A DNA stretch of 64,000 bases from Patescibacteria group bacterium (GCA_019744845.1 JAIETW010000001.1:482859-546858); one strand, 5' to 3'. Positions 30,000 through 59,972 are shown, numbered from the stretch's first letter. Notes: generated by a model not told the origin, from the letters alone. Made by a program: numbers and translations.

Positions 30000-30006
30000 T
30001 GGGCTA

Positions 30007-30321: not shown

Positions 30322-30327
30322 GTACCA

Positions 30328-31043: not shown

Positions 31044-31064
31044 AGCCTTGGTATACTCCAAGAG

Positions 31065-32150: not shown

Positions 32151-32152
32151 CT

Positions 32153-33584: not shown

Positions 33585-33605
33585 GAGGACGAGTACTGTT
33601 ACTAA

Positions 33606-33677
33606 GCCCCCATAGCTTAATGGATAAAGCTGCGGACTTCTAAGCCGTCGATCTAGGTTCGATTCCTGGTGGGGGCA
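33606..33677 (+). tRNA. tRNA-Arg (anticodon TCT)
   Basis: GCCCCCATAGCTTAATGGATAAAGCTGCGGACTTCTAAGCCGTCGATCTAGGTTCGATTCCTGGTGGGGGCA. Acceptor GCCCCCA/TGGGGGC. Anticodon loop CTTCTAA. One A-G mismatch closes the anticodon stem. Confidence 0.75.
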
Positions 33678-33686
33678 CAGCTGGCG

Positions 33687-34232: not shown

Positions 34233-34249
34233 AGATGAGTTTTCGGTGG

Positions 34250-34322
34250 TGGGCGCTAGAGGACTCGAACCTCTGACCATCCCGGTGTAAACGGGGTGCT
34301 CTACCAACTGAGCTAAGCGCCC
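34250..34322 (-). tRNA. tRNA-Val (anticodon TAC)
   Basis: Reverse complement GGGCGCTTAGCTCAGTTGGTAGAGCACCCCGTTTACACCGGGATGGTCAGAGGTTCGAGTCCTCTAGCGCCCACCA. Anticodon loop TTTACAC. CCA is encoded. Confidence 0.85.
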
Positions 34323-34378
34323 GGTCCTGAGACGATAGCGCACCTCTCGCAGATTTCAAAGCGTGGTAGGTTCTATAT

Positions 34379-34648
34379 ATGGAACGCATGGAGGCTTTGG
34401 TCTCGGGCAGGGTACAGGGCGTGATGTATAGAGACTTCGTGGAGCGGAACGCTTCCGCACTCTCTTTGTGTGGATTTGTGAAGAATCTGCCTGACGGGAC
34501 GGTGTCTGTCTATGCAGAAGGGTCGCGCAAACACCTTGAAACATTACTAGAGCGTCTCAAGAAAGGACCGATGTTTGCCAAGGTAGACGAGGTGACGGTT
34601 TCTTGGGCCGAAGCGACAAATGAACATAAATCTTTTAGTATCAAATAA
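34379..34648 (+). CDS. acyP: Acylphosphatase
   Basis: VSGRVQGVMYRDF matches the acylphosphatase signature (V-x-G-x-V-Q-G-V-x-F-R). 89 aa. Confidence 0.8.
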   Translation: MERMEALVSGRVQGVMYRDFVERNASALSLCGFVKNLPDGTVSVYAEGSRKHLETLLERLKKGPMFAKVDEVTVSWAEATNEHKSFSIK

Positions 34649-34651
34649 GTC

Positions 34652-35392
34652 ATGAATCTCCCTATCATTTACGAAGACGAGCAGCTCGTCGCGGTCAACA
34701 AGCCTGCGGGCGTAATGACGCACCCTGACGGAAAGACCTCCGAAGAGACCGTGAGCGACTGGTTTGCAGCTAGGTATCCGGAAAGTAAGGATGTGGGTGA
34801 AGTACAGAAACTTCCTGACGGCACTGAGCTCACGCGCCCTGGTGTCGTGCATCGTCTTGATCGCGATACCTCAGGAGTAATTGTGCTTGCGAAGACACAG
34901 GAGGCACACGCATTCTTGAAGAGTGCATTTCAAAACAGGGAAGCGAAGAAAACCTATGTGGCCTTTGTATACGGTATCCCCAAGGAACGGCGCGGAGTGA
35001 TTGAGTTTGCGATTGGACGTTCTCGCAAAGACTTCCGACTCCGCTCCGCACAACCGAAGGCGAAGGGTCTGCTTCGCGAGGCCGTCACTCGCTACGAGGT
35101 TATCGCAGACAACGGCACACACTCCATTATGAAAGCGATGCCCGAGACAGGGCGCACGCACCAGATTCGTGTGCACCTGAAGGCCATCCACCACCCAGTG
35201 GTAGGGGACACACTGTATGCACCAGGACGCCCGGAGGACCTTGGATTTAACCGTCTTGGTCTCCATGCGTATCGTCTGGAACTCCCGAGCCCTACTGGAG
35301 AACCGCGTATTCTCACAGCACCACTCCCTGAGGAGCTTATGAAAGGAGTAGAGAAATTCCCTGAGGGGGCGGCTCGGATTGCCTCTATATAG
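34652..35392 (+). CDS. RluA-family pseudouridine synthase
   Basis: Catalytic motif HRLDRDTSGVIVLAK. ~246 aa. Confidence 0.85.
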   Translation: MNLPIIYEDEQLVAVNKPAGVMTHPDGKTSEETVSDWFAARYPESKDVGEVQKLPDGTELTRPGVVHRLDRDTSGVIVLAKTQEAHAFLKSAFQNREAKKTYVAFVYGIPKERRGVIEFAIGRSRKDFRLRSAQPKAKGLLREAVTRYEVIADNGTHSIMKAMPETGRTHQIRVHLKAIHHPVVGDTLYAPGRPEDLGFNRLGLHAYRLELPSPTGEPRILTAPLPEELMKGVEKFPEGAARIASI

Positions 35393-35416
35393 GCGGTGTG
35401 ATAGAGTACGCCGACT

Positions 35417-35935
35417 ATGAATCAGGTCATCACTCCGGTTAAGACCGAGGAACGCACCAAGCTTGGCATCCGCCCAGGCGATACGGTCCGTGTCCACCAG
35501 AAGATTGTAGAAAAGGGGAAGACTCGTCTCCAGGTATTTGAAGGTCTCGTCCTTGCGGTCAAGCACGGTACTGAGGCAGGAGCCTCTTTCACCGTTCGTG
35601 CCACCCTTTCTGGTATCGGCGTTGAGCGCGTGTTCCCACTCTACGCTCCTTTTATTGAGAAGATTGAGATCGTAAAGCGCTCTAAGGTTCGCCGCGCAAA
35701 GCTTTACTTCATCCGTGACAAGGTTGCTCGTGAAGTACGCCGCCAGCTCCGCAATATGCGCATGATGAACGTCTCTACGACTGACTTTAAAGAGGAAGAG
35801 AAGGAGGTGGTGTCCGTACTCCCAGAAGAGAACCAGGAGGAGAAGATGGAGACAGCTCCAGAAGTTGCAGAGGCAGGGGGAGATACTTCAACCGAAGCAG
35901 CACCGGAAGCAGCAGAAGAGAAAGCAGCGGTGTAA
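35417..35935 (+). CDS. rplS: 50S ribosomal protein L19 (with acidic C-terminal extension)
   Basis: RPGDTVRVHQKIVEKGKTRLQVFEGLVL...SFTVR...GVERVFPLYAP...VRRAKLYFIRD matches the L19 consensus. Confidence 0.9.
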   Translation: MNQVITPVKTEERTKLGIRPGDTVRVHQKIVEKGKTRLQVFEGLVLAVKHGTEAGASFTVRATLSGIGVERVFPLYAPFIEKIEIVKRSKVRRAKLYFIRDKVAREVRRQLRNMRMMNVSTTDFKEEEKEVVSVLPEENQEEKMETAPEVAEAGGDTSTEAAPEAAEEKAAV

Positions 35936-35941
35936 CGAAAA

Positions 35942-35964
35942 GACCAGGACACCCTGGTCTTTTT
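35942..35964 (+). terminator. Rho-independent terminator after rplS
   Basis: GACCAGG-ACAC-CCTGGTC hairpin followed by TTTTT. Confidence 0.65.
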
Positions 35965-35995
35965 CATATGTTGTCGGTATAGTACGCGGGCACCT

Positions 35996-36077
35996 GCCCA
36001 GGTGGCGGAATTGGTATACGCGCTACCTTGAGGTGGTAGTGCCGCAAGGCTTGGAGGTTCGAGTCCTCTCCTGGGCA
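35996..36077 (+). tRNA. tRNA-Leu (anticodon GAG)
   Basis: GCCCAGGTGGCGGAATTGGTATACGCGCTACCTTGAGGTGGTAGTGCCGCAAGGCTTGGAGGTTCGAGTCCTCTCCTGGGCA. Long variable arm. Anticodon loop TTGAGGT. Confidence 0.85.
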
Positions 36078-36090
36078 CAGACGAAACACC

Positions 36091-36387
36091 GTGGTTATGC
36101 ACCACGGTGTTGTTGTTTCCTCTCTCAATCGTTGCCATGATGAAAATATGAGACAGCACTTACTGAATTCCTTAATGGTTTCAATTGAGTGGCGTGTGAT
36201 TGCGTTCCTGATCACCAATGTCTTCCTCTGGTTTGTGACAGGACATTTCGGGCAGGCAACTGCGCTCGCGCTCGGACTTCACCTCATTCTTTTCTTTGCA
36301 CATTTCGTATGGCACTTCGTCCGACGGGAGTACCCTCGGATGGAGCTTGAGGCAGCGGCTTCCAGAGCGTCGGAACGCGTGGTATAA
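36091..36387 (+). CDS. Small hypothetical membrane protein
   Basis: Two hydrophobic helices. Start could be the internal M (MRQHLLNSLMV...). Confidence 0.35.
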   Translation: MVMHHGVVVSSLNRCHDENMRQHLLNSLMVSIEWRVIAFLITNVFLWFVTGHFGQATALALGLHLILFFAHFVWHFVRREYPRMELEAAASRASERVV

Positions 36388-36398
36388 GTGCGAGACAT

Positions 36399-36474
36399 GG
36401 CGACCGTGGTGTAACGGTTAACACTGCAGGTTGTGGTCCTGCCAATTCGGGTTCGATTCCCGGCGGTCGCCCCA
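36399..36474 (+). tRNA. tRNA-His (anticodon GTG) with encoded G-1 and CCA
   Basis: G-GCGACCGTGGTGTAACGGTTAACACTGCAGGTTGTGGTCCTGCCAATTCGGGTTCGATTCCCGGCGGTCGC-C-CCA. The extra 5' G pairs with discriminator C, the tRNA-His hallmark. Confidence 0.85.
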
Positions 36475-46739: not shown

Positions 46740-48005
46740 ATGTCCAGTTACGAGCACGTGAAGCGTGACGATCCGGAAATTTACCGGGCCCTAGAGGGAG
46801 AAGAGAGGCGTGAACGGGAGGGCCTTGAGCTTATCCCTTCAGAGAACTATGTATCACTCGCCGTACGCGAAGTGATGGGTTCCGTGTTCACAAACAAGTA
46901 CTCGGAAGGGTACCCAGGCAAGCGCTACTACGGCGGGCAGCAGTACACCGACGTCATAGAGGACCTTGCACGCGAACGTGCGAAGAAACTCTTCAACGCA
47001 GGGTTTGCAAACGTGCAGCCACACGCTGGTGCTCCGGCAAACGTTGCAATGTACTTCGCACTCCTTGAGCCGGGGGACACGATTCTCGGTATGGATCTCT
47101 CCCACGGTGGACACCTCACGCACGGGCACCCCGTGACCTATCTCACGAAGATCTTCAACTTCGTGCGATACAAAATGAAGAACATTGAGACGGGAGAAAT
47201 TGATTACGATGAGATGCTAGAGGTGGCGAAGCGTGAGAAGCCAAAGATGCTTCTTGCAGGGTACTCTGCGTATCCTCGCGAGCTTGATTACACAAAATTT
47301 GTATCTATCGCGCGCGAAGTCGGGGCAATCGCCGTCATGGATGTGGCGCACATTGCGGGGCTCATCGCCGGAAAGGCAGTGAAGAATCCATTTGATTACG
47401 GCTTTGATGTGATGACTACCACGACGCACAAGACACTTCGTGGTCCTCGTGGCGGCATGATCCTCACCCGTGAAGACGCGGACGTTGCAAAGAAGATTGA
47501 TAAGTCTGTGTTCCCTGGATTCCAGGGCGGTCCTTTGATGCACATGATTGCCGCAAAGGCAGTGTGTTTCGGGGAAGCACTTACGCCACAGTTTGAGACC
47601 TACGCCAAGCAGGTGATTGTGAATGCGTCTGCCATGGCGGATGTATTCCTTGAGGATGGTGCACGCCTTATTACGGGCGGCACCTCTAACCACCTCATCC
47701 TTGCGGATGTGTGGGGCTCCTACGAAATCTCAGGACATGATGCAGAGACTCTCCTTGATCGTGCAGGTATTACGCTTAACAAGAACTCCATTGCTGACGA
47801 TACACGTAAGCCAATGGACCCATCTGGTATCCGCTTCGGTACGCCTGCGATCACCACTCGTGGATTCAAGGAAGCAGAGTGTATCCGCATTGCAGAACTC
47901 ATGATTGAGATCTTGAAGAAGCGTGATGATGCGACGGTAGAGGCCGCACGTGCAGAAGTGCAGACCATGGCTGAGAAGCACCCAGTACCAGAATCATTCG
48001 TCTAA
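46740..48005 (+). CDS. glyA: Serine hydroxymethyltransferase
   Basis: LELIPSENYVS. PLP-lysine region TTTTHKTLRGPRGG. 421 aa. Confidence 0.95.
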   Translation: MSSYEHVKRDDPEIYRALEGEERREREGLELIPSENYVSLAVREVMGSVFTNKYSEGYPGKRYYGGQQYTDVIEDLARERAKKLFNAGFANVQPHAGAPANVAMYFALLEPGDTILGMDLSHGGHLTHGHPVTYLTKIFNFVRYKMKNIETGEIDYDEMLEVAKREKPKMLLAGYSAYPRELDYTKFVSIAREVGAIAVMDVAHIAGLIAGKAVKNPFDYGFDVMTTTTHKTLRGPRGGMILTREDADVAKKIDKSVFPGFQGGPLMHMIAAKAVCFGEALTPQFETYAKQVIVNASAMADVFLEDGARLITGGTSNHLILADVWGSYEISGHDAETLLDRAGITLNKNSIADDTRKPMDPSGIRFGTPAITTRGFKEAECIRIAELMIEILKKRDDATVEAARAEVQTMAEKHPVPESFV

Positions 48006-48382
48006 TGAAGATTCGGAAGGCCAACGGACTTGATGGGGCCGCCATCAGGAACTTGATACGACTGTATCCAGGGAAGTTGATACAAGAACATCTTCCTCGT
48101 ACGGGAGAGTTCTTTGTTGCCATTGAAGGGAAGAAGATTGTCGGCTGTTGTGCACTTGCCGTGTATTCAAAGCGGCTCGCAGAGATTCGTTCGCTTGCAG
48201 TTGATCCGAACTTCCAAGGGAAGGGGATAGGACGCGCACTCGTGGATGCGTGCATGAAAGAGGCAAAGCGTCGCAAAGTATACGAGGTACTTTCAGTCAC
48301 CGGCGCCAAGGAGCTTTTTGAGAAGCATGGCTTCAACACCTTCAATCAGGAGAAATACGCGATGATTCGGGTCCTTGGATAG
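48005..48382 (+). CDS. GNAT-family N-acetyltransferase
   Basis: Acetyl-CoA-binding motif QGKGIGRALV (Q/RxxGxG/A). 125 aa. Confidence 0.7.
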   Translation: MKIRKANGLDGAAIRNLIRLYPGKLIQEHLPRTGEFFVAIEGKKIVGCCALAVYSKRLAEIRSLAVDPNFQGKGIGRALVDACMKEAKRRKVYEVLSVTGAKELFEKHGFNTFNQEKYAMIRVLG

Positions 48383-48404
48383 GCCCGTTTGCTATACTCC
48401 CTGC

Positions 48405-50048
48405 ATGGAAACGCGCATCAAAGATGCCGTGAGAAACGCTCTTCTGGCGCTCGGCGCGCCGGAGCTTCCATTTGCCGTAGAGCGCCCGGGAGATCACGCG
48501 CATGGAGATTACGCGGTAAATGCCGCACTCGTTGCCGCTAAGGTGCTCGGGAAGAATCCTAAGGAAGTGGCGGATGCACTTGCGACTGAACTTACCAAGG
48601 CGCTTGGAGATTCGGTCACTCGCGTGAGTGTCGCCGGTCCTGGTTTCATCAACATCACGCTTGCCCGCTCAGTTATTACGGACGCACTTGAAGAGGCGCA
48701 CACAGAAGAATGGGGGAAGGGAGTGGTGAACGCAGAGAAGAGGGTGATGGTGGAGTTCACCGACCCCAATCCATTTAAGGAGATGCACATTGGGCACCTC
48801 ATGAGCAACGTGATTGGCGAATCAGTCGCGCGTCTTATTGAATACTCGGGGGCTACTGTTGCGCGTGCAAATTATTTCGGTGACGTCGGACCCCACGTCG
48901 CAAAAGCGATCTGGGGATTGAAGCATGCAGGAGTGACAGATCCAGATTCTGCCGCAGAGATTGGCAAAGCATATGCGCATGGATCTCGTTCGTACGAAGA
49001 AAGCGAGAAGGCAAAGGAAGAAATAGACGCACTTAACATCGCGCTCTATAAAGGAGAAGACAGAGAACTCATGGAGTTCTGGCGCAAAGGACGTGCCGTC
49101 TCACTCGACGCGTTTGAAGAGGTGTACAAGACACTCGGCACGAAGTTTGATTACTATTTCCCAGAAAGCGAAGTGGCCGATGATGGCGTGCGACTCGTAC
49201 AGGAAGGAGTAGAGAAGGGGGTGTTTGAAGAGAGTCAGGGCGCCATAATTTTTAATGGTGAGAAGCGAGGCCTTCATACATTGGTGTTCATCACTTCTAA
49301 AGGCACGCCAACCTATGAAGCCAAGGAGCTTGGGCTCGCCTTTGCAAAGGAGGCGCGCTGGCCATCTGACGTATCACTCATTCTCACCGCGGCAGAACAG
49401 GTGGGACATTTTCATGTCGCACTCGCGGCACTCAAAGAGTTTGCGCATGCGCTTGCCGAAAAGACCGCGCATATTCCTCACGGATTCCTACGCCTCACCA
49501 CGGGGAAGATGTCTTCTCGCGAAGGCACGATCGTGACTGCGACCTCACTCATCAACGATATGGTGGCAAAGGCGCAGGAGCGTGCGCAGGATGTGCTTGT
49601 GGCAGAACAGGTCGGCATTGCCGCAATTAAATACATGGTGCTTCGTCAGGCACCGGGAGGTGACATCATTTTCAATCCTGAACAATCACTTTCTCTTGAG
49701 GGAGATTCTGGTCCGTACCTTCAGTACGCACTCGTGCGTGCGACGTCAGTGCTCGCGTCTGCAGAGAAAGAGGGAAGCAGAGAGGACGCACCCGCGGAAC
49801 CGTATCTTATTGAACGTCTCATCTCTCGTTTCCCTGAAGTTGCGGCCCGTGCAGAGCGCGAGCGCTCCCCACATCATGTCGCACAGTATTTGACCACGCT
49901 TGCGGGAGAGTGGAACTCTTTTTATGCGCAGAACCGTATCATTGGAGGAGAGTATGAGCCATACAAATTGTTTGTGGCACGTGCCTTCCAGAACACCATG
50001 AAAAAAGGTCTGTGGCTCCTGGGGATTCCAACTCCAGAGAAGATGTAA
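48405..50048 (+). CDS. argS: Arginine--tRNA ligase
   Basis: HIGH motif (PNPFKEMHIGHLMSNVIGE). Anticodon-binding DALR domain. C-terminal ...IPTPEKM. Start at ATG 48405 (METRIKDAV...). Confidence 0.95.
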   Translation: METRIKDAVRNALLALGAPELPFAVERPGDHAHGDYAVNAALVAAKVLGKNPKEVADALATELTKALGDSVTRVSVAGPGFINITLARSVITDALEEAHTEEWGKGVVNAEKRVMVEFTDPNPFKEMHIGHLMSNVIGESVARLIEYSGATVARANYFGDVGPHVAKAIWGLKHAGVTDPDSAAEIGKAYAHGSRSYEESEKAKEEIDALNIALYKGEDRELMEFWRKGRAVSLDAFEEVYKTLGTKFDYYFPESEVADDGVRLVQEGVEKGVFEESQGAIIFNGEKRGLHTLVFITSKGTPTYEAKELGLAFAKEARWPSDVSLILTAAEQVGHFHVALAALKEFAHALAEKTAHIPHGFLRLTTGKMSSREGTIVTATSLINDMVAKAQERAQDVLVAEQVGIAAIKYMVLRQAPGGDIIFNPEQSLSLEGDSGPYLQYALVRATSVLASAEKEGSREDAPAEPYLIERLISRFPEVAARAERERSPHHVAQYLTTLAGEWNSFYAQNRIIGGEYEPYKLFVARAFQNTMKKGLWLLGIPTPEKM

Positions 50049-50059
50049 TATAGGAGCAT

Positions 50060-50341
50060 ATGAGCGAAGGAATAGAAGCAAAAGGATCAACCACCGAACC
50101 AGTTATTGCGAGCATACGCGATGCGGTCTTATACGCCCGAACGATTGGATACCCTATTCTCGTCCGTCCGTGGGGATGCGATGAGAATTCAGAAAAACTC
50201 TTTCATGTCGTGAACAACGATGAAGAGCTTATCCGCATTCTTCCGGATGCGCTTCGTGACTCAGTTAACCAGGGCCGTGTAGACATGGTGCATCTTACAA
50301 AGGCACAGGAAACGAAGAGCTACATCCCAACGCCTAAATAG
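50060..50341 (+). CDS. Small ORF resembling an isolated ATP-grasp N-terminal fragment (possible gene remnant)
   Basis: AVLYARTIGYPILVRPWG resembles the ATP-grasp A..FA..IGYPVxVRP motif, but only 93 aa. May be a degraded remnant or spurious. Confidence 0.25.
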   Translation: MSEGIEAKGSTTEPVIASIRDAVLYARTIGYPILVRPWGCDENSEKLFHVVNNDEELIRILPDALRDSVNQGRVDMVHLTKAQETKSYIPTPK

Positions 50342-50379
50342 TTTGGGGAACGTCCTTTCCTAGGATAGGATGGACGATT

Positions 50380-53300
50380 ATGGCAGATGATCGGGGTAAA
50401 GCAGAGGTAGCACGACGCGAAGAGGAAATTCTCGCGTTTTGGAAGGATGCCCGTATCTTTGAGAAATCACTCGGGAAAGATGCTCCTAAGGGGGAGTTCA
50501 CCTTTTATGACGGTCCTCCATTTGCGACCGGCCTCCCACACCAGGGTTCTCTTCTTTCTTCGGTCGCTAAAGATGCGATCCCGCGCTACAAGACCATGCG
50601 TGGGTATAGAGTACGTCGTCGTTGGGGCTGGGATACGCACGGACTTCCGATTGAATCGCTCGTAGAGAAGAAGCTGGGACTGAAGAATAAGAAAGAGATT
50701 CTCAATATAGGTATTGAGACCTTTAACGAGACTGCGCGCTCCATGGTGCTTGATTACGTGCATGAGTGGAAACGCTACATTGAGCGTATTGGTCGCTTCG
50801 TGGATTTTGATAATTCCTACAAGACCATGGACAACTCATTCATTGAGTCGGTCTGGTGGGGACTGAAGGAGATACATAAGAAGGGACGTCTCTATGAGGG
50901 ACGCAAAGTGCTTATGTACTGTCCGCACTGCGAAACGCCACTCGCGAAAGCAGAGATCGCGATGGACAACACCTATAAGGACATCACTGAAGAAGCGGTG
51001 ACGGTGAAGTTCAAGGTGAAGAATCCAGAGAAGCATGCGTTGCCCGCAGATACCCACATTCTCGCGTGGACCACGACGCCGTGGACGCTTCCGGGAAACG
51101 TGGGACTTGCAGTAGGGAAGGACATTCAGTACGGGCTCTACGGAAACGTGATTGCGGCTTCCGCGCGCGCTGAGTCTCTCGGGCTCTCCTCTCCTTCAAA
51201 GGAGATTACGGGCGCTGAACTTGTGGGTATTGAATACGAACCGCTCTATGACATCGCAAAAGTGGCGGCACACACAGGAAAGAAGTGGCAGGTGCTCTCC
51301 GGAGATTTCGTTACCACTGAAGATGGTACGGGTATCGTGCACACTGCCGTCATCTATGGAGAGGACGACTACGCGCTTGGCCTTAAGGAAGGGCTTCCAA
51401 TGGTGCCGCTCCTAAATCCAAACGGTACGTACAACGCTGACGCACCTGAGTTTGTGCAGGGGCAGTACATCAAGAAAGCAGAACCACTCATCAAGGAAGA
51501 TCTGGAGAAGCGCGGACTCATGTTTGCGAAGGCGATGAATACGCACTCATACCCGCATTGTTACCGCTGCGGCACTGCGCTCATCTACAACGCCGTCTCT
51601 TCGTGGTTCATAGATATTCAGTCGGTGAAGCAGAAGATGCTCGCAGAGAACGAAAAGATTTCCTGGACTCCAGGGCATCTTAAGCACGGACGTTTCAAAC
51701 ACATTATTGAATCTGCACCAGATTGGACTATTTCTCGTAACCGATTCTGGGCAAGTCCGCTTCCGATCTGGAAAGATCCGAAAGGGAATGTCACCGTCAT
51801 CGGTTCTCTTGATGAGCTTAAGGCGCGCACGAAGAAGTCAGGCAACAAATATTTCCTTCTTCGTCATGGCGAGGCAGAGCAGAATGCGATGGATATTTTG
51901 AACAGCAAAGATCCAGAGAAGTATGGTTTGACCGAAAAAGGGAAGGGGCAGGCAGATGAGGCAGGGGATGCGCTTAAAGAGAAAAAGATCACCAAGGTCT
52001 TTGTGTCCCCGTATCGTCGTACTCGCGAGACGGCAGGCATTGTCGCAAAGAAGCTCGGTATTCCAGAGTCTTCAATTGTCGTAGACGAGCGTATTCGCGA
52101 GCTTGATTTTGGCGAGAAAGATGGCAGTGGGCACAACGCATTCCTTGAATACCGTGCCGCACACATGTCCTCCTGTGACGATCGTATTCCTGGAGGGGAG
52201 AGTTACCAGGACGCCCGCAAGCGTTTTGGAGAGTTTATTTATGAAATAGAAGAGAAGTACCAGAATGAATCGGTGCTCATTGTCTCGCACGGCATTGCCT
52301 TTGAGACACTGGAGACACTTTCACTTGGACTCAGCAAGGTAGAGGTATGGGATCGCATTCTTGGCGTCCGCGCACCTATCGGCGCATACAAGGAGATTGA
52401 GTTTGTACCACTGCCACATAACAAGGATTACGAACTTGATTACCATCTCCCATACATAGATCGGGTGCAGCTTGTCTCTGAATCGGGAGAGCCACTTACC
52501 CGTACGCCTGAAGTGGTGGACTGTTGGGTGGAGTCAGGCTCCATGCCGTTTGCGGAGTACCACTATCCCTTTGAGAACCAGAAGGAGTTTGAGAAACGTG
52601 CGCCGGGGGACTTCGTCTCCGAATACATTGGGCAAACTCGTGCCTGGTTCTACTACATGCACGCGATCTCTGTCTCTATCTTTGGCCGTCAGTCATTCCG
52701 CAATGTGATCACGACTGGAAACGTCGTTGCCAAAGACGGGGCGAAGCTCTCTAAGAGTAAGAACAACTATACGGATCCGTACGTACTCTTTGATATGTAT
52801 GGTGCAGACGCGTTCCGGTATTACCTCCTCTCAAGTCCGGTCATGCAGGCAGAGGATCTTATGTTCCGCGATGAGGACGTGAAGGATGCGCATGCACGCG
52901 TCGTGAACATGCTTCGGAACGTCTTGTCCTTCTACCTTCTCTTTAAGGACGACATAAAAGAAGGAGTAGTGGTGCGCACCACGCATCCACTTGATAAGTG
53001 GATCTGGGCACGCTTCTCTGAAGTGCTTGCAGATTCCACTGATGCCTTTGATCGCTACGACGTCGTACGCGCGACACGCCCGTTCAAGGATTTCATTGAT
53101 GACTTGTCTACCTGGTACCTTCGTCGCTCACGTGACCGTGTGAAGGGAGAGGATGAGGAAGATCGTCAGGCAGCACTCCTTACCCTCCGTCACATTCTTC
53201 GTGAGTTCTCTAAGGTGATTGCGCCCGCAATGCCGTTTATCGCAGACGAAATATTCCGCACCGTGCGTCTCTCCTCTGATCCTGAAAGTGTGCACCTTGC

Positions 53301-53757
53301 CAACTGGCCAGCGCGTAAGGTGGCGCTCGTCACCAAGCTTCTTGGCGCAGGGAAGCGCGAGAAGATCTTGGTTACTGAAATGGCGCAGGTACGTGCGCTT
53401 GCCTCCGAAGCACTCATGCTTCGTCAGAAGGCAAATCTTAAAGTACGTCAGCCTCTTGCCTCTCTTTCTATCCCTGGAACACTGCTTCCTGAACTCGCGG
53501 CAATTCTTTCTGACGAGGTGAATGTGAAAGAGGTGAAGATGAATGCGAAGGATGTATCTCTTGATACAGTACTTACTCCTGAACTTGTGAAAGAGGGGGA
53601 CGAACGTGCGTTTGCACGCGCAGTCGCTGAAGCACGTAAGACGGAAGGCCTCTCACCAAAAGATAAAGTGACGGTAGAAAAGAAAGAGGATGGTGCACAT
53701 GTCGCTGAACTTTCTACCGGCAGCGTGCGCTTCTCGCTTATTCGCGATGCGTCCTAA
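50380..53757 (+). CDS. ileS: Isoleucine--tRNA ligase (type-2-like) carrying an inserted histidine-phosphatase (PGM-family) domain
   Basis: Class I motifs PPFATGLPHQGS (HIGH-like) and KLSKS. WTISRNRFWASPLPIW and YHLPYIDRV...VVDCWVESGSMP (CP/zinc region). Between them is a ~190-aa module, FLLRHGEAEQN...VFVSPYRRTRETA...LIVSHGIA, with the RHG and SHG catalytic motifs of histidine phosphatases. Confidence 0.9.
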   Translation: MADDRGKAEVARREEEILAFWKDARIFEKSLGKDAPKGEFTFYDGPPFATGLPHQGSLLSSVAKDAIPRYKTMRGYRVRRRWGWDTHGLPIESLVEKKLGLKNKKEILNIGIETFNETARSMVLDYVHEWKRYIERIGRFVDFDNSYKTMDNSFIESVWWGLKEIHKKGRLYEGRKVLMYCPHCETPLAKAEIAMDNTYKDITEEAVTVKFKVKNPEKHALPADTHILAWTTTPWTLPGNVGLAVGKDIQYGLYGNVIAASARAESLGLSSPSKEITGAELVGIEYEPLYDIAKVAAHTGKKWQVLSGDFVTTEDGTGIVHTAVIYGEDDYALGLKEGLPMVPLLNPNGTYNADAPEFVQGQYIKKAEPLIKEDLEKRGLMFAKAMNTHSYPHCYRCGTALIYNAVSSWFIDIQSVKQKMLAENEKISWTPGHLKHGRFKHIIESAPDWTISRNRFWASPLPIWKDPKGNVTVIGSLDELKARTKKSGNKYFLLRHGEAEQNAMDILNSKDPEKYGLTEKGKGQADEAGDALKEKKITKVFVSPYRRTRETAGIVAKKLGIPESSIVVDERIRELDFGEKDGSGHNAFLEYRAAHMSSCDDRIPGGESYQDARKRFGEFIYEIEEKYQNESVLIVSHGIAFETLETLSLGLSKVEVWDRILGVRAPIGAYKEIEFVPLPHNKDYELDYHLPYIDRVQLVSESGEPLTRTPEVVDCWVESGSMPFAEYHYPFENQKEFEKRAPGDFVSEYIGQTRAWFYYMHAISVSIFGRQSFRNVITTGNVVAKDGAKLSKSKNNYTDPYVLFDMYGADAFRYYLLSSPVMQAEDLMFRDEDVKDAHARVVNMLRNVLSFYLLFKDDIKEGVVVRTTHPLDKWIWARFSEVLADSTDAFDRYDVVRATRPFKDFIDDLSTWYLRRSRDRVKGEDEEDRQAALLTLRHILREFSKVIAPAMPFIADEIFRTVRLSSDPESVHLANWPARKVALVTKLLGAGKREKILVTEMAQVRALASEALMLRQKANLKVRQPLASLSIPGTLLPELAAILSDEVNVKEVKMNAKDVSLDTVLTPELVKEGDERAFARAVAEARKTEGLSPKDKVTVEKKEDGAHVAELSTGSVRFSLIRDAS

Positions 53758-54286
53758 GTACGTCACTCCTGCAATTGTGCTTGCCCGTATACCTCACGGG
53801 GAAGCCAACGCGCTTGTGACCTTACTGACTGCGGACTTCGGCCTTATCCGTGCACGTGCACAGGGAGTGCGGAAGTCTGGTGCCAAACTCGCGGCCTCTC
53901 TCCGCACCCTTTCTGAACTTGATGCCAGCGTCTTGTATGGGAAGGAGGGATGGCGTCTCTCAGGAGCCTCACTTGTAGAAGATCACTTTTCTAACCTTGA
54001 TGCAGTCTCCCGTGCCCGTGCAGGCCGTATTTCGTCTCTTATTCTCCGCCTGGTGCGAGGGGAGACCGCAGAGCCAGAGCTCTTTTTTGCCATCAAAGAC
54101 TTCCTGTCTTCACTCCCTGGTGAGGATGAAGAGACTCAGGATGCACTTGAGTGCCGTACGGCGCTTCGCCTCGTGAGTGCACTTGGGCTTGATGCAGGGG
54201 AGATTCCCGCGCTTGAAGAGGTGCAGACTTCTCGCAAAGCAATAGTCGCGCGCATCAATACTGGCATCGCAGCTTCGGGTCTTTAA
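53747..54286 (+). CDS. recO: DNA repair protein RecO (short form)
   Basis: OB-fold N-terminus ...TPAIVLARIPHGEANALVTLLTADFGLIRARAQGVRKS resembles RecO. 179 aa. Overlaps the ileS stop by 11 nt. Confidence 0.65.
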   Translation: MRPKYVTPAIVLARIPHGEANALVTLLTADFGLIRARAQGVRKSGAKLAASLRTLSELDASVLYGKEGWRLSGASLVEDHFSNLDAVSRARAGRISSLILRLVRGETAEPELFFAIKDFLSSLPGEDEETQDALECRTALRLVSALGLDAGEIPALEEVQTSRKAIVARINTGIAASGL

Positions 54287-54304
54287 GGTATACTTTTCTA
54301 CATC

Positions 54305-56146
54305 ATGGCTGATGAGCGCGAAGAAAAGCCAAGCCCGCTTGAGCGGATGCGAAAGAGTCTCTACACTCCGGGCACCTCTTTTGATATACAGCCGTCCTCA
54401 CTGTCTGCACGTTCTTCAAAGATGGCGCGTACTTGGGAAAAGGAGCCTGAGCCTGAAGTAAAAAAGGAGAGTCCAATTAAAATCTCCAAGTCCCTCATCT
54501 TCCTTATCGGTGCTGCAGCGTTTTTTGTAATTGCGGGACTGATTGCGTTCTTCCTTGTCGTACAGGGGGGTCGCTCGGTGTCTACCGATCGGATCTCTAT
54601 TTCTATTGAAAACCCACCCACCTCTATCGCAGGAGGGGACACGGTCTCTTTGTTTGTACTCATAAAGAACGAGAATCCTGCACTTCTCACTGACGCTAAA
54701 CTCTCGGTAGATTTTCCTGAAGGAACATACTCAGCGATTAATGCGACCGAACAAATCTCGCACCACATAGAGAAGATTGGAAACATTGGTCCAGGAGAGA
54801 GTGTGAAGAAAACCATCCGTGCCACTCTCTTTGGGGAAGCGAATCAGACGATTAAGATTCCGATGACGCTTGAATACCGCACGGAAGGCTCTAGTGCGAC
54901 CTTTGAGAAGGAAGAGGAATTTAGTTTTGTGATTGGCACCTCTCCTGTGTCGGTGAATGTGGTCGCGCTCTCTGAAGTAGCGTCAGGGCAGGAGATGACC
55001 TTTGAAGTGTCGGTACGTTCTAACTCACCAACGCTCATTGATGATCTCGCTGTGCGTGCAGAGTATCCATTTGGGTTTTCTGTTGTTGAAACCACTCCAT
55101 CTCCAGTTGCCGGGAACCTGTTCTCCCTTGGTGGACTCAAGCCAGGAGAAGAACGGAAGATCACCATCACCGGCAGGCTTACCGGCCAAGATCAGGATGA
55201 GCGCGTGTTCCGCTTTTCTGCGGGAACCGCACGCGCAGATGGTTCGCAGAATCTTGCGACGACGTATATTTCTAAGGAGGCGCTCGTGCAGATCACGCGG
55301 CCATTTATTGCGGTTGACCTTACCGTTGACGGAAGCCAAGCAGATTTGATTGCGGTTGCCCCTGGTCGCCCCGTCCAGTCACTGCTCTCGTGGATGAACA
55401 CACTCCCAAGTCAGATTCAGGATGCAGAACTTTCCGTTCGTCTTACAGGGGAGGCGCTTGATAAAAATTCTGTGACAGCATCCGGCGGATTCTATCGCTC
55501 TTCTGATACCACCGTGCTCTTTAACCGGGATTCTTCACCAGGCCTCCGTACGCTTCAGCCAGGAGATAGTGGAAAGGGATCATTTAGCTTTGCGACCAAG
55601 CCAAGCGCTCAGCTCGCGGACCTTCACAATCCTTCTATTACGATTACCGTTTCCGTTGCAGGCCGTCGCGTCGGAGAAACAGGCGTTGCAGAGCAGGTGT
55701 CCTCTACACTCACGCGTACCATACAGGTGGCAAGCGAGCTTTCACTCTCTGCATACGCCACGCGTGTAAGTGGTGCGTATCCGCCAGTTGCCGATGCGGA
55801 GACCGTCTACAGTGTGCGCTTTGGGGTGAATAACGGAGTGAACGCGATTGCTGATAGCGTCGTGAAAGCAACGCTTCCATCCTATGTGCGCTTCATCAGT
55901 AGCGCTGGAGGAAGCGTGACGTATAACGAAACGACACGAGAAGTCTCATGGGTCATTGGTGAACTCCCCGCACATGCACAGAACCGCTCAGCCGCCTTTG
56001 ATATTGCATTCCTTCCAAGTACCTCACAGCGAGATGCGACCCCAGTACTCGTGAATAGCCCGGTACTTTCGGGGTTTGATCGCTATGTGCAGAAGGTGGT
56101 GACCGATACGGTGCAGGCAATAGACTCTGGCGAGCCAGTAGAGTAG
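54305..56146 (+). CDS. Large membrane-anchored surface protein with ~5 tandem beta-rich repeat domains (hypothetical)
   Basis: N-terminal TM anchor LIFLIGAAAFFVIAGLIAFFLVV followed by a repeated ~100-aa pattern of Ig/DUF11-like type (PTSIAGGDTVSLFVL, VSGQEMTFEVSV, VAPGRPVQSLLSW, ITITVSVAGRRV, VYSVRFGVNNG). Confidence 0.5.
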   Translation: MADEREEKPSPLERMRKSLYTPGTSFDIQPSSLSARSSKMARTWEKEPEPEVKKESPIKISKSLIFLIGAAAFFVIAGLIAFFLVVQGGRSVSTDRISISIENPPTSIAGGDTVSLFVLIKNENPALLTDAKLSVDFPEGTYSAINATEQISHHIEKIGNIGPGESVKKTIRATLFGEANQTIKIPMTLEYRTEGSSATFEKEEEFSFVIGTSPVSVNVVALSEVASGQEMTFEVSVRSNSPTLIDDLAVRAEYPFGFSVVETTPSPVAGNLFSLGGLKPGEERKITITGRLTGQDQDERVFRFSAGTARADGSQNLATTYISKEALVQITRPFIAVDLTVDGSQADLIAVAPGRPVQSLLSWMNTLPSQIQDAELSVRLTGEALDKNSVTASGGFYRSSDTTVLFNRDSSPGLRTLQPGDSGKGSFSFATKPSAQLADLHNPSITITVSVAGRRVGETGVAEQVSSTLTRTIQVASELSLSAYATRVSGAYPPVADAETVYSVRFGVNNGVNAIADSVVKATLPSYVRFISSAGGSVTYNETTREVSWVIGELPAHAQNRSAAFDIAFLPSTSQRDATPVLVNSPVLSGFDRYVQKVVTDTVQAIDSGEPVE

Positions 56147-56157
56147 TCTCTACAGAT

Positions 56158-57450
56158 ATGGAAGGTTTGACTCTTGATACCCTCGTTTCTCTCGCCAAGC
56201 GTCGTGGATTCGTGTATCCGGGCTCTGAAATCTATGGCGGCCTTGCCGGTACTTTTGACTACGGACCGATGGGAGTCGCGCTCAAGAAGAATATTGAGCA
56301 GCTCTGGTGGAATCGTTTTGTCGCGACTCGTGATGACATGTACGGCCTTGATTCAAGCATCATCATGCCGGAAGCAGTCTGGAAAGCATCTGGACACCTT
56401 GAGGGCTTCACTGATCCCATGGTGGAGTGTGAGAAGTGTAAGCACCGCTTCCGCGCTGATCACGTAGAAGGGGAGAAGTGCCCGGATTGTGGTGGAAAGT
56501 TGAGTGCGGCACGCCAGTTCAACCTTTTGTTCCCGGTAGAGATGGGTGCGGCTTCAGGCGGTACGACGACTGGATATCTTCGCGGAGAGATTGCACAGGG
56601 CATGTTTGTGAACTTTAAGAATGTCATTGATTCCTTCCATCCAAAACTTCCATTTGGTTTGGCACAGAGTGGTAAGGCGTTCCGCAATGAGATTGCCCCA
56701 CGCGAGTTTTTGTTCCGTGTACGTGAGTTTGATCTCATGGAGTTTGAGTACTTCATTCGTCCCGATATGTGGGAGGAGCGTTTTGAATATTGGCGTAAAG
56801 AGATGTGGGCGTGGATTGAGGAAGTGGGTATTGATAAGGAAAAGGTGCATGAGCTAGAGGTGTCTGCCGACGATCGCGCGCACTACTCTAAGCGCACCAT
56901 AGACTTTGAGTTTGATTTCCCATTTGGTCGTAAAGAGCTCTACGGTCTTGCGTACCGTACTGACTACGATCTTTCTCGTCATGGAGAAGCTTCAAAGGAA
57001 AACCTTACCTATCTAGACGAAGAGACGAAGGAGAAGTTTGTGCCGCATGTCATTGAACCTACCTTTGGTCTTGGCCGCACCGTGCTTGCGGTGCTTGCCT
57101 CTGCGTATCGTGAGGATGAGCTTGGGGGAGAGAAGCGTGTGTACCTTGCACTGCCTCCCGCAGTCGCTCCAGTGAAGGCGATGGTGTCTCCACTCTTGAA
57201 AAACAAGCCGGAGCTTGTGGCAAAGGCACGAGAAGTGCGCGAGATGCTTCGCAAAGTGAATCCTGCGATTGCGTGGGACGATAACGGTAACATTGGTAAG
57301 CGATATCGTCGTCAGGATGAGATAGGTACGCCGTACTGTGTGACGATTGATTTTGATACCCTTGAAGACAATACGGTAACGGTGCGTGATCGTGATACGG
57401 GAGAACAGAAGAGGGTCGCCATCGCAGATCTTTCCTCCACGCTCTTCTAA
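56158..57450 (+). CDS. glyQS: Glycine--tRNA ligase (homodimeric alpha2 type)
   Basis: RGFVYPGSEIYGGLAGTFDYGPMG N-terminus. Class II motifs. Zn-finger-like insertion (CEKCKHRF...CPDCGG). C-terminal anticodon-binding domain. Confidence 0.95.
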   Translation: MEGLTLDTLVSLAKRRGFVYPGSEIYGGLAGTFDYGPMGVALKKNIEQLWWNRFVATRDDMYGLDSSIIMPEAVWKASGHLEGFTDPMVECEKCKHRFRADHVEGEKCPDCGGKLSAARQFNLLFPVEMGAASGGTTTGYLRGEIAQGMFVNFKNVIDSFHPKLPFGLAQSGKAFRNEIAPREFLFRVREFDLMEFEYFIRPDMWEERFEYWRKEMWAWIEEVGIDKEKVHELEVSADDRAHYSKRTIDFEFDFPFGRKELYGLAYRTDYDLSRHGEASKENLTYLDEETKEKFVPHVIEPTFGLGRTVLAVLASAYREDELGGEKRVYLALPPAVAPVKAMVSPLLKNKPELVAKAREVREMLRKVNPAIAWDDNGNIGKRYRRQDEIGTPYCVTIDFDTLEDNTVTVRDRDTGEQKRVAIADLSSTLF

Positions 57451-57486
57451 GGTGCAGAGCGAAGGGCAGAGTGCTAGTATTGCCCT

Positions 57487-58533
57487 ATGGATAAGCAGAT
57501 CAACGTCTCTATCACTCCTGGGACGGTCGTAATGACCATTCTCATTGGTGCAGCCGCCTACGCGCTCTGGTACCTCAGAGACCTCGTGCTTTTGGTCCTT
57601 ACGGCCATTGTGATTGCGTCAGCACTTGAGCCAGGTATCGCCTTTTTTGTGAAATATAAGCTTCCGCGCGTTATTGCCGGGCTCCTCATGTATTTGATTC
57701 TCTTCGGATCATTCTTCGGCACCATCTATTTCTTCTTCCCACCAATTCTTGAAGATACGCAGGCATTCCTTTTGTCCGCACCGCAGTATTTAGAGACCAT
57801 GAATCTTCCACAGTCGCTCACTGACATCTCTGTCGCGGCAGAGCATGCAGCAGAAGGGGAGACACTCATTGACACCTTGTTTGCCTTCCGTTCCGCATTC
57901 GTAGATACCTCTGAAGGAGCCTTCCGCTTGGTGTCTTCGTTCTTCGGTGGTGTGTTCTCGCTTCTGCTCGTGCTCGTACTTTCGTTCTATCTCGCGATTC
58001 GGGAGACGGGAGTGAATGACTTCCTTCGTTTGGTTACCCCCGCAAAGCACGAGGACTACATTCTTGATTTGTGGCGCCGTGCACACGGAAAGATCGGGCA
58101 GTGGATGCAGGGGCAGCTTCTCCTCTCTATTCTTGCGGGCGTGATCATCTATCTGGGCCTTCTCATCCTTGGCGTACCGTATGCACTTTTGCTTGCGTCC
58201 TTTGCAGCGGTTGCAGAGCTTATTCCAATCTTCGGTTCCTACATCGCTGCTATTCCCGCACTTATTGTTGCCTTTACGTACGGCGGGTTCCCGCTTGCGG
58301 TCATCGTCGCAGGTCTCTACTTGATCATGAACCTCTTCCAGGCAAATCTCATTTATCCGCTTGTGGTGAACAAAGTGGTGGGCATCCCACCGCTCATGGT
58401 CATTCTTGCACTTCTCATTGGAGGTAGTTTGGCTGGATTCCTTGGGGTGCTCCTTTCGGTTCCTATCGCCGCTGCACTTCAGGAGTTCATTAAAGACTTT
58501 GATCGTGCCAAGCGAAAGGGGAAGACTGCCTAA
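57487..58533 (+). CDS. AI-2E family transporter (PerM-like permease)
   Basis: 8 TM helices with the AI-2E pattern (LLSILAGVIIYLGLLILGVPYALLLASFAAVAELIPIFGSYIAAIPA). Confidence 0.8.
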   Translation: MDKQINVSITPGTVVMTILIGAAAYALWYLRDLVLLVLTAIVIASALEPGIAFFVKYKLPRVIAGLLMYLILFGSFFGTIYFFFPPILEDTQAFLLSAPQYLETMNLPQSLTDISVAAEHAAEGETLIDTLFAFRSAFVDTSEGAFRLVSSFFGGVFSLLLVLVLSFYLAIRETGVNDFLRLVTPAKHEDYILDLWRRAHGKIGQWMQGQLLLSILAGVIIYLGLLILGVPYALLLASFAAVAELIPIFGSYIAAIPALIVAFTYGGFPLAVIVAGLYLIMNLFQANLIYPLVVNKVVGIPPLMVILALLIGGSLAGFLGVLLSVPIAAALQEFIKDFDRAKRKGKTA

Positions 58534-58538
58534 GACCC

Positions 58539-59972
58539 ATGAGTGCTCGCTACCTTACCTCTACACTTCCGTACGTAAACGCTGATCCGCATATTGGATT
58601 TGCGCTAGAGATTGTCCAGACTGATGCGCTTGCGCGTGCATGGCGGGCAGAAGGGCATCAAGTATTTTTCAGTACGGGAACGGATGAACATGGACAAAAG
58701 ATTCTTGAAGCAGCGGAGAAGTCTGGAAAGGATGTGCAGGACTATGTAGATCACTACGCTTCTGAGTTTCAGAAGTTGAAAGAGGCGCTTGATTTGAGTA
58801 ACGATACGTTCATTCGCACTACCGATGCGCATCATGTCGCTGCGGCACAGGAAATGTGGAAGCGTTGTGAAGCCTCAGGAGATATATACAAGAAAGCGTA
58901 CGAAGGTTTGTACTGTGTCGGATGTGAGAAGTTTTTGACGGAGCGCGACATGGAAGAAGGGAAGTGTGTGATTCATCAGAAGGAGCCAGTCCTTCTTAAG
59001 GAAGAGAACTACTTCTTTCGCTTCTCTAAGTATCAGGACGCACTTCTTGGGTATCTTTCACGTCCTACCTCAGTCGTTCCTGAGTGGCGACGAGAAGAGG
59101 CACTGAACTTTGTGAAGGGGGGTCTTGAAGACTTCAGTATTTCTCGTGAGAAAGAGCGTCTTTCCTGGGGCATTCCCGTACCAGGAGATGATACGCAGGT
59201 TATGTATGTTTGGTTTGATGCGCTCACCAACTACATCTCTACGCTTGGCTGGCCTGAGCAGGGAGGGAACTTTGAGAAGTTCTGGACCAACGGATTTGTG
59301 CTTCAGACGGCGGGGAAAGATCAGGTCCGCTTCCAGTCACTCATGTGGCAGGCCATGCTTATCTCTGCAGGAGTAAAAGCAACTGACACGGTCTTCTACC
59401 ACGGCTTCATTACCTCCGGAGGGCAGAAGATGAGTAAGTCTTTAGGAAATGTGATTAGCCCGTACGATCTGGTGACCAAGTACGGCACTGATGCCACGAG
59501 ATATCTTCTTCTTCGTCACGTCCATCCGTTTGAAGATTCAGATGTGACCTGGGAGCGACTTGATGAGTGGTACACCGCAAACTTGGTGAACGGACTTGGA
59601 AACTTGGTCGCGCGCGTGATGAAACTTGCGGAAGAACATCTTCCAGGACCGGTCGCAGTTTCTGAAGACGACGTACGCATAGAAGCACCCTTTGTTGCTG
59701 CGCTAGACGCATTCCGTTTTGATGAAGCAATGGATCTTATCTTCAGTCATATCCAGAAGGGGGATGAGTACATCACCGAGAATGAGCCGTACAAGAAAGT
59801 GAAGGTAGAGGAGACAAAAGAGGAAGCAAAGAAAGATTTGGAGAAGCTCGTCATACACCTTGCAAAGGTGGCGGCACATCTTGCTCCACTCATGCCTTCA
59901 ACCGCGCGTGCTATTCAGGCTGCGGTCGCTACGAACACCAAGCCAGAGAATCTCTTCCCACGACTGCCGTGA
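58539..59972 (+). CDS. metG: Methionine--tRNA ligase (minimal form without C-terminal tRNA-binding domain)
   Basis: HIGH-region variant PYVNADPHIGFA. KMSKS (QKMSKSLGN). Zn knuckle CVGCEKF...C. Confidence 0.95.
   Translation: MSARYLTSTLPYVNADPHIGFALEIVQTDALARAWRAEGHQVFFSTGTDEHGQKILEAAEKSGKDVQDYVDHYASEFQKLKEALDLSNDTFIRTTDAHHVAAAQEMWKRCEASGDIYKKAYEGLYCVGCEKFLTERDMEEGKCVIHQKEPVLLKEENYFFRFSKYQDALLGYLSRPTSVVPEWRREEALNFVKGGLEDFSISREKERLSWGIPVPGDDTQVMYVWFDALTNYISTLGWPEQGGNFEKFWTNGFVLQTAGKDQVRFQSLMWQAMLISAGVKATDTVFYHGFITSGGQKMSKSLGNVISPYDLVTKYGTDATRYLLLRHVHPFEDSDVTWERLDEWYTANLVNGLGNLVARVMKLAEEHLPGPVAVSEDDVRIEAPFVAALDAFRFDEAMDLIFSHIQKGDEYITENEPYKKVKVEETKEEAKKDLEKLVIHLAKVAAHLAPLMPSTARAIQAAVATNTKPENLFPRLP

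Follow-up and report, generated by a model that had tools for sequence, protein, structure and literature searches.

The window analyzed here is a stretch of 64,000 nucleotides (nt) from a Patescibacteria group bacterium (GCA_019744845.1 JAIETW010000001.1:482859-546858). It carries a gene, hereafter named ileS::HP, which encodes a type-2 isoleucyl-tRNA synthetase (IleRS) with a histidine phosphatase (HP) inserted in its catalytic domain. The features of the gene, its neighbors and the insertion sites found in related enzymes are collected in Table 1. A preliminary description of the window had proposed a single uninterrupted open reading frame (ORF) of 1125 codons in which a complete, in-frame histidine phosphatase lies between two conserved IleRS blocks of the catalytic domain. 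Both the reading frame and the nested phosphatase are borne out, and all the IleRS and phosphatase motifs quoted at the time were found at the expected coordinates.

Table 1 Features of ileS::HP and its neighborhood. Gene and motif positions are window nucleotides; sites A to D were mapped onto the insert-less L081 IleRS and are given in window numbering (residues, res).
Feature	Position	Strand	Remarks
ileS::HP gene	50380..53757, stop codon included	+	1125-aa type-2 isoleucyl-tRNA synthetase with inserted histidine phosphatase; uninterrupted ORF
IleRS N-terminal part, res 1-486	50380..51837	+	Aligns to 1ILE residues 6-482; first Rossmann half, connective peptide (CP) core, CP1 editing domain, CP2, CP2-CP3 linker, CP3 first beta-hairpin and helix
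HIGH signature, here H-Q-G-S	50539..50550	+	Ser for the fourth His; H54 and G56 invariant
CP2-CP3 linker WTISRNRFWASPLPIW	51724-51771	+
Inserted histidine phosphatase module, res 487-685	51838..52434	+	Nested in CP3 loop (site A)
RHG motif	51862..51870	+	R495, nucleophilic H496, G497
R547	52018..52020	+	Second phosphate-binding Arg (SPYRRTRET)
E574	52099..52101	+	Predicted general acid/base (RELDFGE); aligns with PhoE motif LREIHLGDWEG
H637-G638	52288..52293	+	Second catalytic His (LIVSHG)
IleRS C-terminal part, res 686-1125	52435..53757	+	Aligns to 1ILE residues 488-814; Anticodon_1, DUF5915; rest of CP3, second Rossmann half, anticodon-binding domain, type-2 C-terminal domain
LDYHLPYID	52435-52461	+	CP3
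DCWVESG	52519-52539	+	Second Rossmann half
KLSKS	52744-52758	+	Second Rossmann half; K789, S791, K792, S793 invariant in 74 homologues
argS	48375..50048	+	Pfam; upstream member of the argS-(HP)-ileS-recO block
93-aa conserved ORF	50060..50341	+	In the slot of the relatives' free-standing phosphatase gene
recO	53690..54286	+	RecO_N; downstream block member; listed ORF shares 68 nt with the ileS 3' end
Site A	~486/487		CP3 loop 1; window, Paceibacteria, first Peregrinibacteria copy, P0161, P0219
Site B	~701-705		CP3 loop 2; second Peregrinibacteria copy, P0186 d2, P0132 d1
Site C	~725-737		After DCWVESG…HYPFEN; P0129 d1, P0185 d1, P0223, P0132 d2
Site D	~856-870		First loop of anticodon-binding domain; P0129 d2, P0185 d2

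Along the protein, Pfam recognizes tRNA-synt_1 in two stretches with His_Phos_1 between them, followed by Anticodon_1 and DUF5915. The NCBIfam ileS equivalog TIGR00392 scores 770.5 bits (cut-off 621.4), despite a match that is split by the insert. Thermus thermophilus (Tt) IleRS (1ILE) is matched with a phmmer E value of 9e-188, and the CP1 editing domain aligns to 1WK8/1UDZ. The full-length AlphaFold2 (AF2) model has a mean predicted local distance difference test score (pLDDT) of 85.4, with values of 93-97 across the insert. Its IleRS scaffold was compared by Foldseek with solved type-2 and eukaryotic IleRS, giving TMt values of 0.74-0.83 (0.83 to 1ILE; 0.74-0.75 to 8C8U/8C8V). Overall, the protein has the same full domain set as type-2 IleRS of known structure (1ILE; Priestia megaterium IleRS2, 8C8U/8C8V; yeast, 7D5C and 8WND), including DUF5915, the C-terminal domain of this eukaryote-like, mupirocin-insensitive type. 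The models of the mupirocin-resistance enzymes MupA/MupB (NF000257/NF000258) gave 591 and 603 bits, below their cut-off of 1900, and that of IleRS with a GNAT domain (NF040702) gave 329 bits, below its cut-off of 1999.

The HxGS form of the HIGH signature is found in 64 of the 74 sequences of the window's subclade (with Thr in 2) and in one of 50 insert-less IleRS sampled. HQGS was considered as a correlate of the phosphatase insert and rejected, since 14 insert-bearing loci have HxGH; the variant is therefore specific to the window's subclade. The window gene occupies the syntenic position of ileS in insert-less relatives, which argues that it is the orthologous housekeeping copy. With a HIGH-like motif, KLSKS, CP1 editing domain, anticodon-binding domain and type-2 C-terminal domain, its IleRS scaffold is complete, and the enzyme is predicted to charge tRNA-Ile normally.

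The limits of the insert were defined by alignment to 1ILE, in which window residues 6-486 fall on Tt residues 6-482 and residues 686-1004 on Tt residues 488-814. Hence, 199 residues (487-685) replace five residues of the Tt enzyme (483-487). The location given in the preliminary description (51841-52420) is right, with limits that are slightly narrow at both ends (true insert 51838-52434). The segment had also been said to be short in ordinary type-2 IleRS, and this agrees with the spacing of the flanking core motifs in a reference-genome set. In these 80 loci, taken among the matches listed and not quantitative for clade frequencies, the spacing is 54-79 residues without insert, 249-269 with one phosphatase and 433-442 with two.

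The insertion point lies in CP3, the region that runs from the W-x-I-S-R-x-R-x-W-G linker to the second Rossmann half (ScIleRS 459-526, CaIleRS 473-534; PMC7955072); subdomain names follow PMC7955072 and PMC7191050. The topology of CP3 differs among Candida, Thermus and Staphylococcus IleRS, and a zinc motif is present in Thermus only (PMC7191050). This marks CP3 as a surface element that varies naturally. Compared with Tt IleRS, the window CP3 lacks the Zn-binding cysteines, and HIGH is HQGS. In two other insert-bearing loci (L011, L015), the CP3 zinc knuckle is retained, its two CxxC pairs flanking the insert. Thus, the phosphatase is nested in CP3 and does not replace it.

The sequence is metagenome-derived and its nearest database entries are metagenome-assembled genomes (MAGs), so that a chimeric assembly or a mis-join, raised in the preliminary description, had to be considered. 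Among 5.8 billion proteins, the best 120 matches (63-100% identical, 1090-1185 residues) all combine PF00300 with the IleRS domains. Their sources are NCBI, JGI, ENA and Logan assemblies, and they belong to Patescibacteria, Paceibacterota and Parcubacteria. In addition, an independently assembled relative (L086, GCA_964357595.1) aligns collinearly over the full 3375 nt, free of indels, with 93% amino acid identity and the same gene neighborhood, and the fused architecture occurs in at least 18 reference-genome loci. The G+C content is similar in the insert (0.494) and on either side of it (0.516 and 0.522). The frame runs on without a break, and purifying selection acts on the insert (see below). 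The 120 matches and the collinear assembly exclude a mis-join, and the chimera explanation is effectively refuted. The inserted phosphatase is real and clade-wide. The architecture had been called unusual for an aminoacyl-tRNA synthetase (aaRS). This is true among the aaRS described so far; on the other hand, it is not a one-off, since ileS is normally built this way in a large clade of Patescibacteria. Two further candidates were rejected. An intein or another self-splicing or mobile insertion does not fit the Pfam scan of the whole protein, which gives only aaRS and His_Phos_1 families and no Hint/intein or homing-endonuclease domain, and the phosphatase fold of the AF2 domain model accounts for the entire insert. 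An apparently split ileS in a Yanofskybacteria MAG (L041, break at ~5515-5527 inside the phosphatase insert) is not genuine, the break being a run of Ns.

The insert is recognized as a histidine phosphatase with high significance. In the whole protein, His_Phos_1 (PF00300) covers residues 492-658 (E = 2.5e-34), and the profile is matched with 119-120 bits (cut-off 21.7) over positions 2-169 of 194. The interval 51841-52420 taken alone matches the same family at E = 1.3e-34, which confirms the first identification. Across 74 homologues, each of the active-site residues that define branch 1 of the superfamily, R495/H496/(G497)/N502/R547/E574/H637, is either invariant or conserved to at least 90%. 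Four of these residues (R495, H496, R547 and H637) are invariant in the 74 homologues, in 26 reference-genome copies and in every copy of the multi-copy variants. E574 is at least 90% conserved in the 74 sequences and is Glu in the 26 reference-genome copies. The whole catalytic set is present in 26/26 complete reference-genome copies except for two Asn substitutions, and it is kept in every complete copy of the multi-copy IleRS variants.

Comparison with the closest relative, L086, gives a dN/dS ratio (nonsynonymous to synonymous substitution rates) of 0.058 for the insert, versus 0.025-0.040 for the IleRS core and 0.069 for the editing domain. The insert is thus under strong purifying selection. 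It is also the more variable part of the protein, with 82% amino acid identity to the same relative versus 94-97% for the core. Synonymous divergence (dS) between the two sequences is about twofold higher in the insert (1.87) than in the flanking core (0.80-0.87). The faster evolution of the insert could fit a non-catalytic module, for instance a scaffold or a ligand sensor that binds a phosphorylated metabolite and modulates IleRS, and domain insertions in aaRS are often non-catalytic. However, the six catalytic residues vary little or not at all in more than 100 copies that are only 22-55% identical to each other outside the conserved residues, where a pseudo-enzyme would be expected to lose its nucleophile or its acid/base in some lineages. 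A module without catalysis is therefore highly improbable. The insert is apparently a complete and active histidine phosphatase, as judged from its residues and its modeled fold.

The AF2 model of the domain alone is of high quality (pLDDT 95.2; predicted TM score, pTM, 0.91). Its nearest structures (Foldseek probability 1.00) superpose with TM scores of 0.78-0.82 and root-mean-square deviations (rmsd) of 2.2-2.9 Å. They are 6S2Q (mycobacterial hydrolase 1), the phosphoserine phosphatase PspA (4IJ5/6) and PhoE (1H2E), then the riboflavin-pathway HFP (9MMH), the glucosyl-3-phosphoglycerate phosphatase GpgP (4QIH) and CobC (6E4B). PhoE is also the top PDB match by sequence (E = 3e-12). Structures of dPGM, the cofactor-dependent phosphoglycerate mutase, superpose worse (rmsd 3.4-6.9 Å). 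Hence, the predicted fold matches that of small-cap phosphomonoesterases acting on small molecules rather than that of mutases. The assignment to the phosphoglycerate-mutase family made in the preliminary description consequently stands at the superfamily level and fails at the level of dPGM itself, whose models score far below their cut-offs (NF038349, 95 bits versus 225; TIGR01258, 31 versus 81.7; NF010713, 28 versus 305). Scores are likewise below the cut-offs for CobC (TIGR03162, 81.5 versus 162.9), PspA (NF045917, 77 versus 350), SixA (TIGR00249, 43.8 versus 74.5) and GpmB (NF002901, 73.9 versus 261). Since the insert reaches none of the NCBIfam equivalog cut-offs, homology gives no basis for assigning a substrate.

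When the insert alone served as query, free-standing homologues of 185-205 residues were retrieved from the Candidate Phyla Radiation (CPR). The nearest one (P0271) is 45% identical over its full length. In three independent genomes, such a gene (P0271, P0279, P0276) lies directly upstream of an insert-less ileS (948-960 codons), with intergenic gaps of 7-58 nt. The block in relatives reads (tmk)-argS-HP-(NUDIX)-ileS-recO-DUF11/CLIPPER-glyS, and the order in the window, shared with L086, is tmk-glyA-GNAT-argS-orf93-ileS::HP-recO-DUF11-glyS. The argS-ileS-recO synteny is common to L081, L082, L084 and L086. Neighbors were further scanned by a six-frame hidden Markov model (HMM) search of 86 loci. 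In two Staskawiczbacteria loci (L032, L053), a phosphatase ORF abuts the ileS start. The same scan found no separate phosphatase copy within the flanks of insert-bearing loci, and no phosphatase within 4 kb at the other insert-less loci (Saccharibacteria, Actinobacteria, Spirochaetes, others). No locus among those examined combines an adjacent phosphatase with an inserted one. The phosphatase is thus either a neighbor of ileS or inside it, which is a Rosetta-stone pattern, and the adjacency recurs in three separate IleRS clades.

In the window, the slot of the free-standing gene is occupied by the 93-aa ORF, which is 63% identical to its L086 counterpart. The idea that it is a decayed phosphatase remnant was rejected, as the ORF matches neither Pfam nor the HP HMM and is itself conserved. 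By eye, its sequence (…ARTIGYPILVRPWG…) looks like a fragment of an ATP-grasp enzyme. In Staskawiczbacteria, a NUDIX hydrolase gene is found between the free-standing phosphatase gene and ileS (L082 6587-7033, L083 987-1433). This may hint at a nucleotide-related function.

A survey of related lineages, suggested in the preliminary description, found the fused architecture in the best 120/120 matches, and intact copies at three or more further sites in other CPR lineages. The partnership is realized by a gene next to ileS, by a single insert, or by two to four of them at separate sites, up to the four phosphatase copies of fragment P0123. The two copies of Peregrinibacteria do not result from a tandem duplication: the second lies in the other CP3 loop, ~20 residues downstream, and the two are only 22-31% identical. 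One IleRS fragment (P0219) contains three foreign domains, namely an IS200-like Y1 transposase in the editing-domain region (after ~window residue 307), the site-A histidine phosphatase and then a GNAT acetyltransferase. In lineages of this type, IleRS appears to be a hotspot for domain insertion.

Evolution of the module was followed with bootstrapped neighbor-joining trees, built on deep divergences. In the phosphatase tree, Paceibacteria inserts, ileS-adjacent genes and other free CPR copies form one clade with 100% support, distinct from the non-CPR PhoE-like proteins as well as from the two Peregrinibacteria copies. In the tree of IleRS cores, inserted, adjacent and absent states are interleaved in well-supported clades. 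Three loci with an adjacent gene (L081, L082, L053) group with one that has no phosphatase (L024, 100%), and an insert-bearing locus (L007) falls inside an insert-less clade (95%). The window insert itself groups with the L010 insert (92%) and with the free-standing L081 protein (78%), whereas their IleRS cores belong to different clades. These trees suggest that the module was repeatedly gained, lost or exchanged, in directions that neighbor joining does not fix. Recombination or exchange of the module is a possible reason for the discordance and for the raised dS of the insert; saturation noise is another.

These distributions bear on whether the phosphatase has anything to do with isoleucylation. 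It could be an ordinary housekeeping enzyme (a phosphoserine, sugar-phosphate or general PhoE-type phosphatase) without a biochemical tie to the synthetase, carried by local rearrangements in streamlined CPR genomes into permissive loops of its neighbor, and kept there because it was needed and its expression guaranteed. With a gene directly upstream of ileS in relatives, ileS is the likeliest target of such a rearrangement. The sites are diverse and all in variable loops, as if tolerance of an insert were the sole requirement, and the nearest structures are general small-molecule phosphatases. Moreover, the module was cleanly lost in one locus (L022) nested in an insert-bearing clade (98%). 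However, the gene stands between argS and ileS, yet all of the multi-domain hosts checked by Pfam (18/18, of varied length) are type-2 IleRS or fragments of it; none is another protein, and ArgRS is absent despite argS being the other neighbor. At least four independent in-frame insertions, with up to four intact copies per IleRS, are hard to explain without a benefit of linkage. Adjacency to ileS also recurs in separate clades, and insertion in the middle of an essential catalytic domain is much rarer than end-to-end fusion. We therefore regard a phosphatase unrelated to isoleucylation as unlikely, although it keeps a real chance of being right, and the IleRS-phosphatase partnership as well supported.

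The explanation that we favor, and hold to be probably correct, is that the housekeeping ileS encodes a bifunctional IleRS-phosphomonoesterase with a small, likely nucleotide-type substrate. The domain would act as a phosphomonoesterase in a process coupled to IleRS. H496 would take the phosphate, R495, R547, N502 and H637 would hold it, and E574 would serve as acid/base. The partnership with IleRS would be older than the fusion, which would fix co-expression and co-localization of the two activities. The weakest step concerns the substrate, a presumed small phosphomonoester, with AMP, another nucleoside monophosphate (NMP) or a 2'/3'-phosphorylated nucleotide as best guess. A role in local product clearance or housecleaning, tied to the cycle of synthesis and editing in which IleRS consumes ATP, could follow. 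Such a substrate is favored because a PhoE-like cap covers the active site, because all the nearest structures are small-molecule phosphatases, because the enzyme evidently works in trans when free-standing, and because of the NUDIX gene present in some operons. PhoE has reportedly been found to hydrolyze AMP and other nucleotides among many substrates (Rigden et al. 2001).

Several points weigh against this explanation. The diversity of the sites (CP3, the loop after DCWVESG and the anticodon-binding domain) speaks against a required precise geometry at the synthetic site, which weakens the idea of an action on something in the IleRS pocket. The trees that suggest repeated gain, loss or exchange are neighbor-joining trees of deep divergences. 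The HIGH motif is HQGS and not HxGH, and full IleRS activity is an assumption. Finally, hydrolysis of AMP would be wasteful if a CPR organism depends on nucleotide salvage.

The substrates first proposed for the module, (p)ppGpp, Ap4A and 2',3'-cyclic phosphates, are poor chemical fits in view of what is known of the family. Branch-1 histidine phosphatases pass the terminal phosphate of a phosphomonoester to the catalytic His. Ap4A and 2',3'-cyclic phosphates contain no phosphomonoester, and (p)ppGpp is hydrolyzed by HD and NUDIX enzymes, so that all three are chemically unlikely. The preliminary description had also evoked proofreading or regulation, and a role of the inserted phosphatase in either is possible.

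One regulatory scheme would make the host itself the substrate. The histidine phosphatase superfamily includes the protein phosphatases SixA, PGAM5 and Sts-1, and the inserted domain might dephosphorylate IleRS in cis, most plausibly at S791 or S793 of the KLSKS motif, so as to undo a kinase of the HipA/HipT type or a regulatory one. Tethering, even of multiple copies, would be sensible in such a case, and the K-L-S-K-S of the window protein is invariant. Kinases are known to target the KMSKS serine of class I synthetases: HipA phosphorylates GltX on S239 (KLS239KR) and HipT phosphorylates TrpS on S197 (KMS197KS; PMC6581861). On the other hand, no kinase targeting IleRS is known, and none was searched for in these genomes. 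The cap is PhoE-like, the nearest structures are small-molecule enzymes rather than SixA-like minimal protein phosphatases, and the free-standing form is merely an operon neighbor. An action on IleRS itself is accordingly improbable.

We know of no histidine phosphatase acting on RNA ends. Nevertheless, the position of the insert raises the question of whether the domain could strip a 2'/3'-terminal phosphate from damaged tRNA-Ile, or from another RNA end, for repair and recharging on IleRS. CP3 begins just past the CP2-CP3 linker, which is part of the pocket that binds the tRNA CCA end and reveromycin (PMC7955072), and all of sites A to D may be turned toward the bound tRNA. There is also a family, the bifunctional RNase H/acid phosphatases (NF005567), in which a histidine phosphatase is fused to a nucleic-acid enzyme. 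However, end repair is not obviously specific to IleRS, and a capped pocket suits small molecules. We consider tRNA-end repair to be a little less probable again than dephosphorylation of the synthetase.

Among known systems, the window protein belongs to the IleRS family, and its insert to the histidine phosphatase superfamily. In 1ILE, five residues stand where the window protein has a 199-residue enzyme domain. The insert shares its catalytic residues and small cap with PhoE (YhfR of Geobacillus stearothermophilus, 1EBB/1H2E), PspA (4IJ5), CobC (6E4B/6NRU), GpgP (Rv2419c, 4QIH) and HFP (9MMH); it is only 22-26% identical to these PhoE-type enzymes and is nested in another enzyme, whereas they are free-standing. 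The free-standing CPR phosphatases (P0271, P0276, P0279; L081, L082, L084, L032, L053) belong to the same clade and neighborhood as the insert, but they are separate polypeptides whose partner IleRS has a short CP3. A precedent for an IleRS with an extra enzyme domain is NF040702 (ileS_w_GNAT), although the window gene has no GNAT domain. NF005567 is a fusion precedent on the phosphatase side, of which the insert, with 85-87 bits versus a cut-off of 326, is not a member. No description of an IleRS-phosphatase was found in searches of the literature on IleRS and aaRS or on CPR/Patescibacteria, and the AARS Online paper makes no mention of a phosphatase module. Public records name such proteins "class I tRNA ligase family protein" or "isoleucyl-tRNA synthetase".

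Other features of the window were observed around the locus. A 125-aa GNAT acetyltransferase gene (48005-48382, +) lies just upstream of argS and overlaps its listed start; a separate GNAT gene in the ileS block is of note, as GNAT domains occur inside IleRS in other lineages. Genes for ArgRS, IleRS, class II GlyRS and MetRS are gathered in ~12 kb (48375-59972), interleaved with recO, a DUF11 surface-type protein and an AI-2E transporter. Further away, the regions 5490-8298 and 19442-36474 contain dnaA and dnaN (a probable replication-origin region), a T4SS-pilin-like gene, a T2SSE ATPase and eight tRNA genes (Lys, three Arg, Ser, Val, Leu, His).

The aaRS are among the most conserved enzymes, and the domains that they have acquired in bacteria mostly serve editing, tRNA binding or zinc binding; they are not independent metabolic catalysts. 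Strong gene-fusion and gene-neighborhood evidence now points to an undescribed link between isoleucylation and dephosphorylation across a major uncultivated bacterial radiation. In a bolder form of this link, which we put forward tentatively and judge unlikely, the charging of tRNA-Ile in much of Patescibacteria would depend on a dedicated phosphatase "eraser" that no model organism has. It would act on the synthetase (e.g. on a KMSKS-loop phosphoserine produced by Hip-like toxin kinases), on tRNA-Ile, or on a phosphorylated inhibitor or by-product specific to IleRS, and this need would have driven the at least four independent insertions. IleRS::HP also offers a natural example of how an essential enzyme can take up inserted domains again and again. 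The identity of the substrate could reveal a new level of control or repair of aaRS, a defense against toxins or inhibitors that target IleRS, or an adaptation of the nucleotide economy of ultra-small symbionts.

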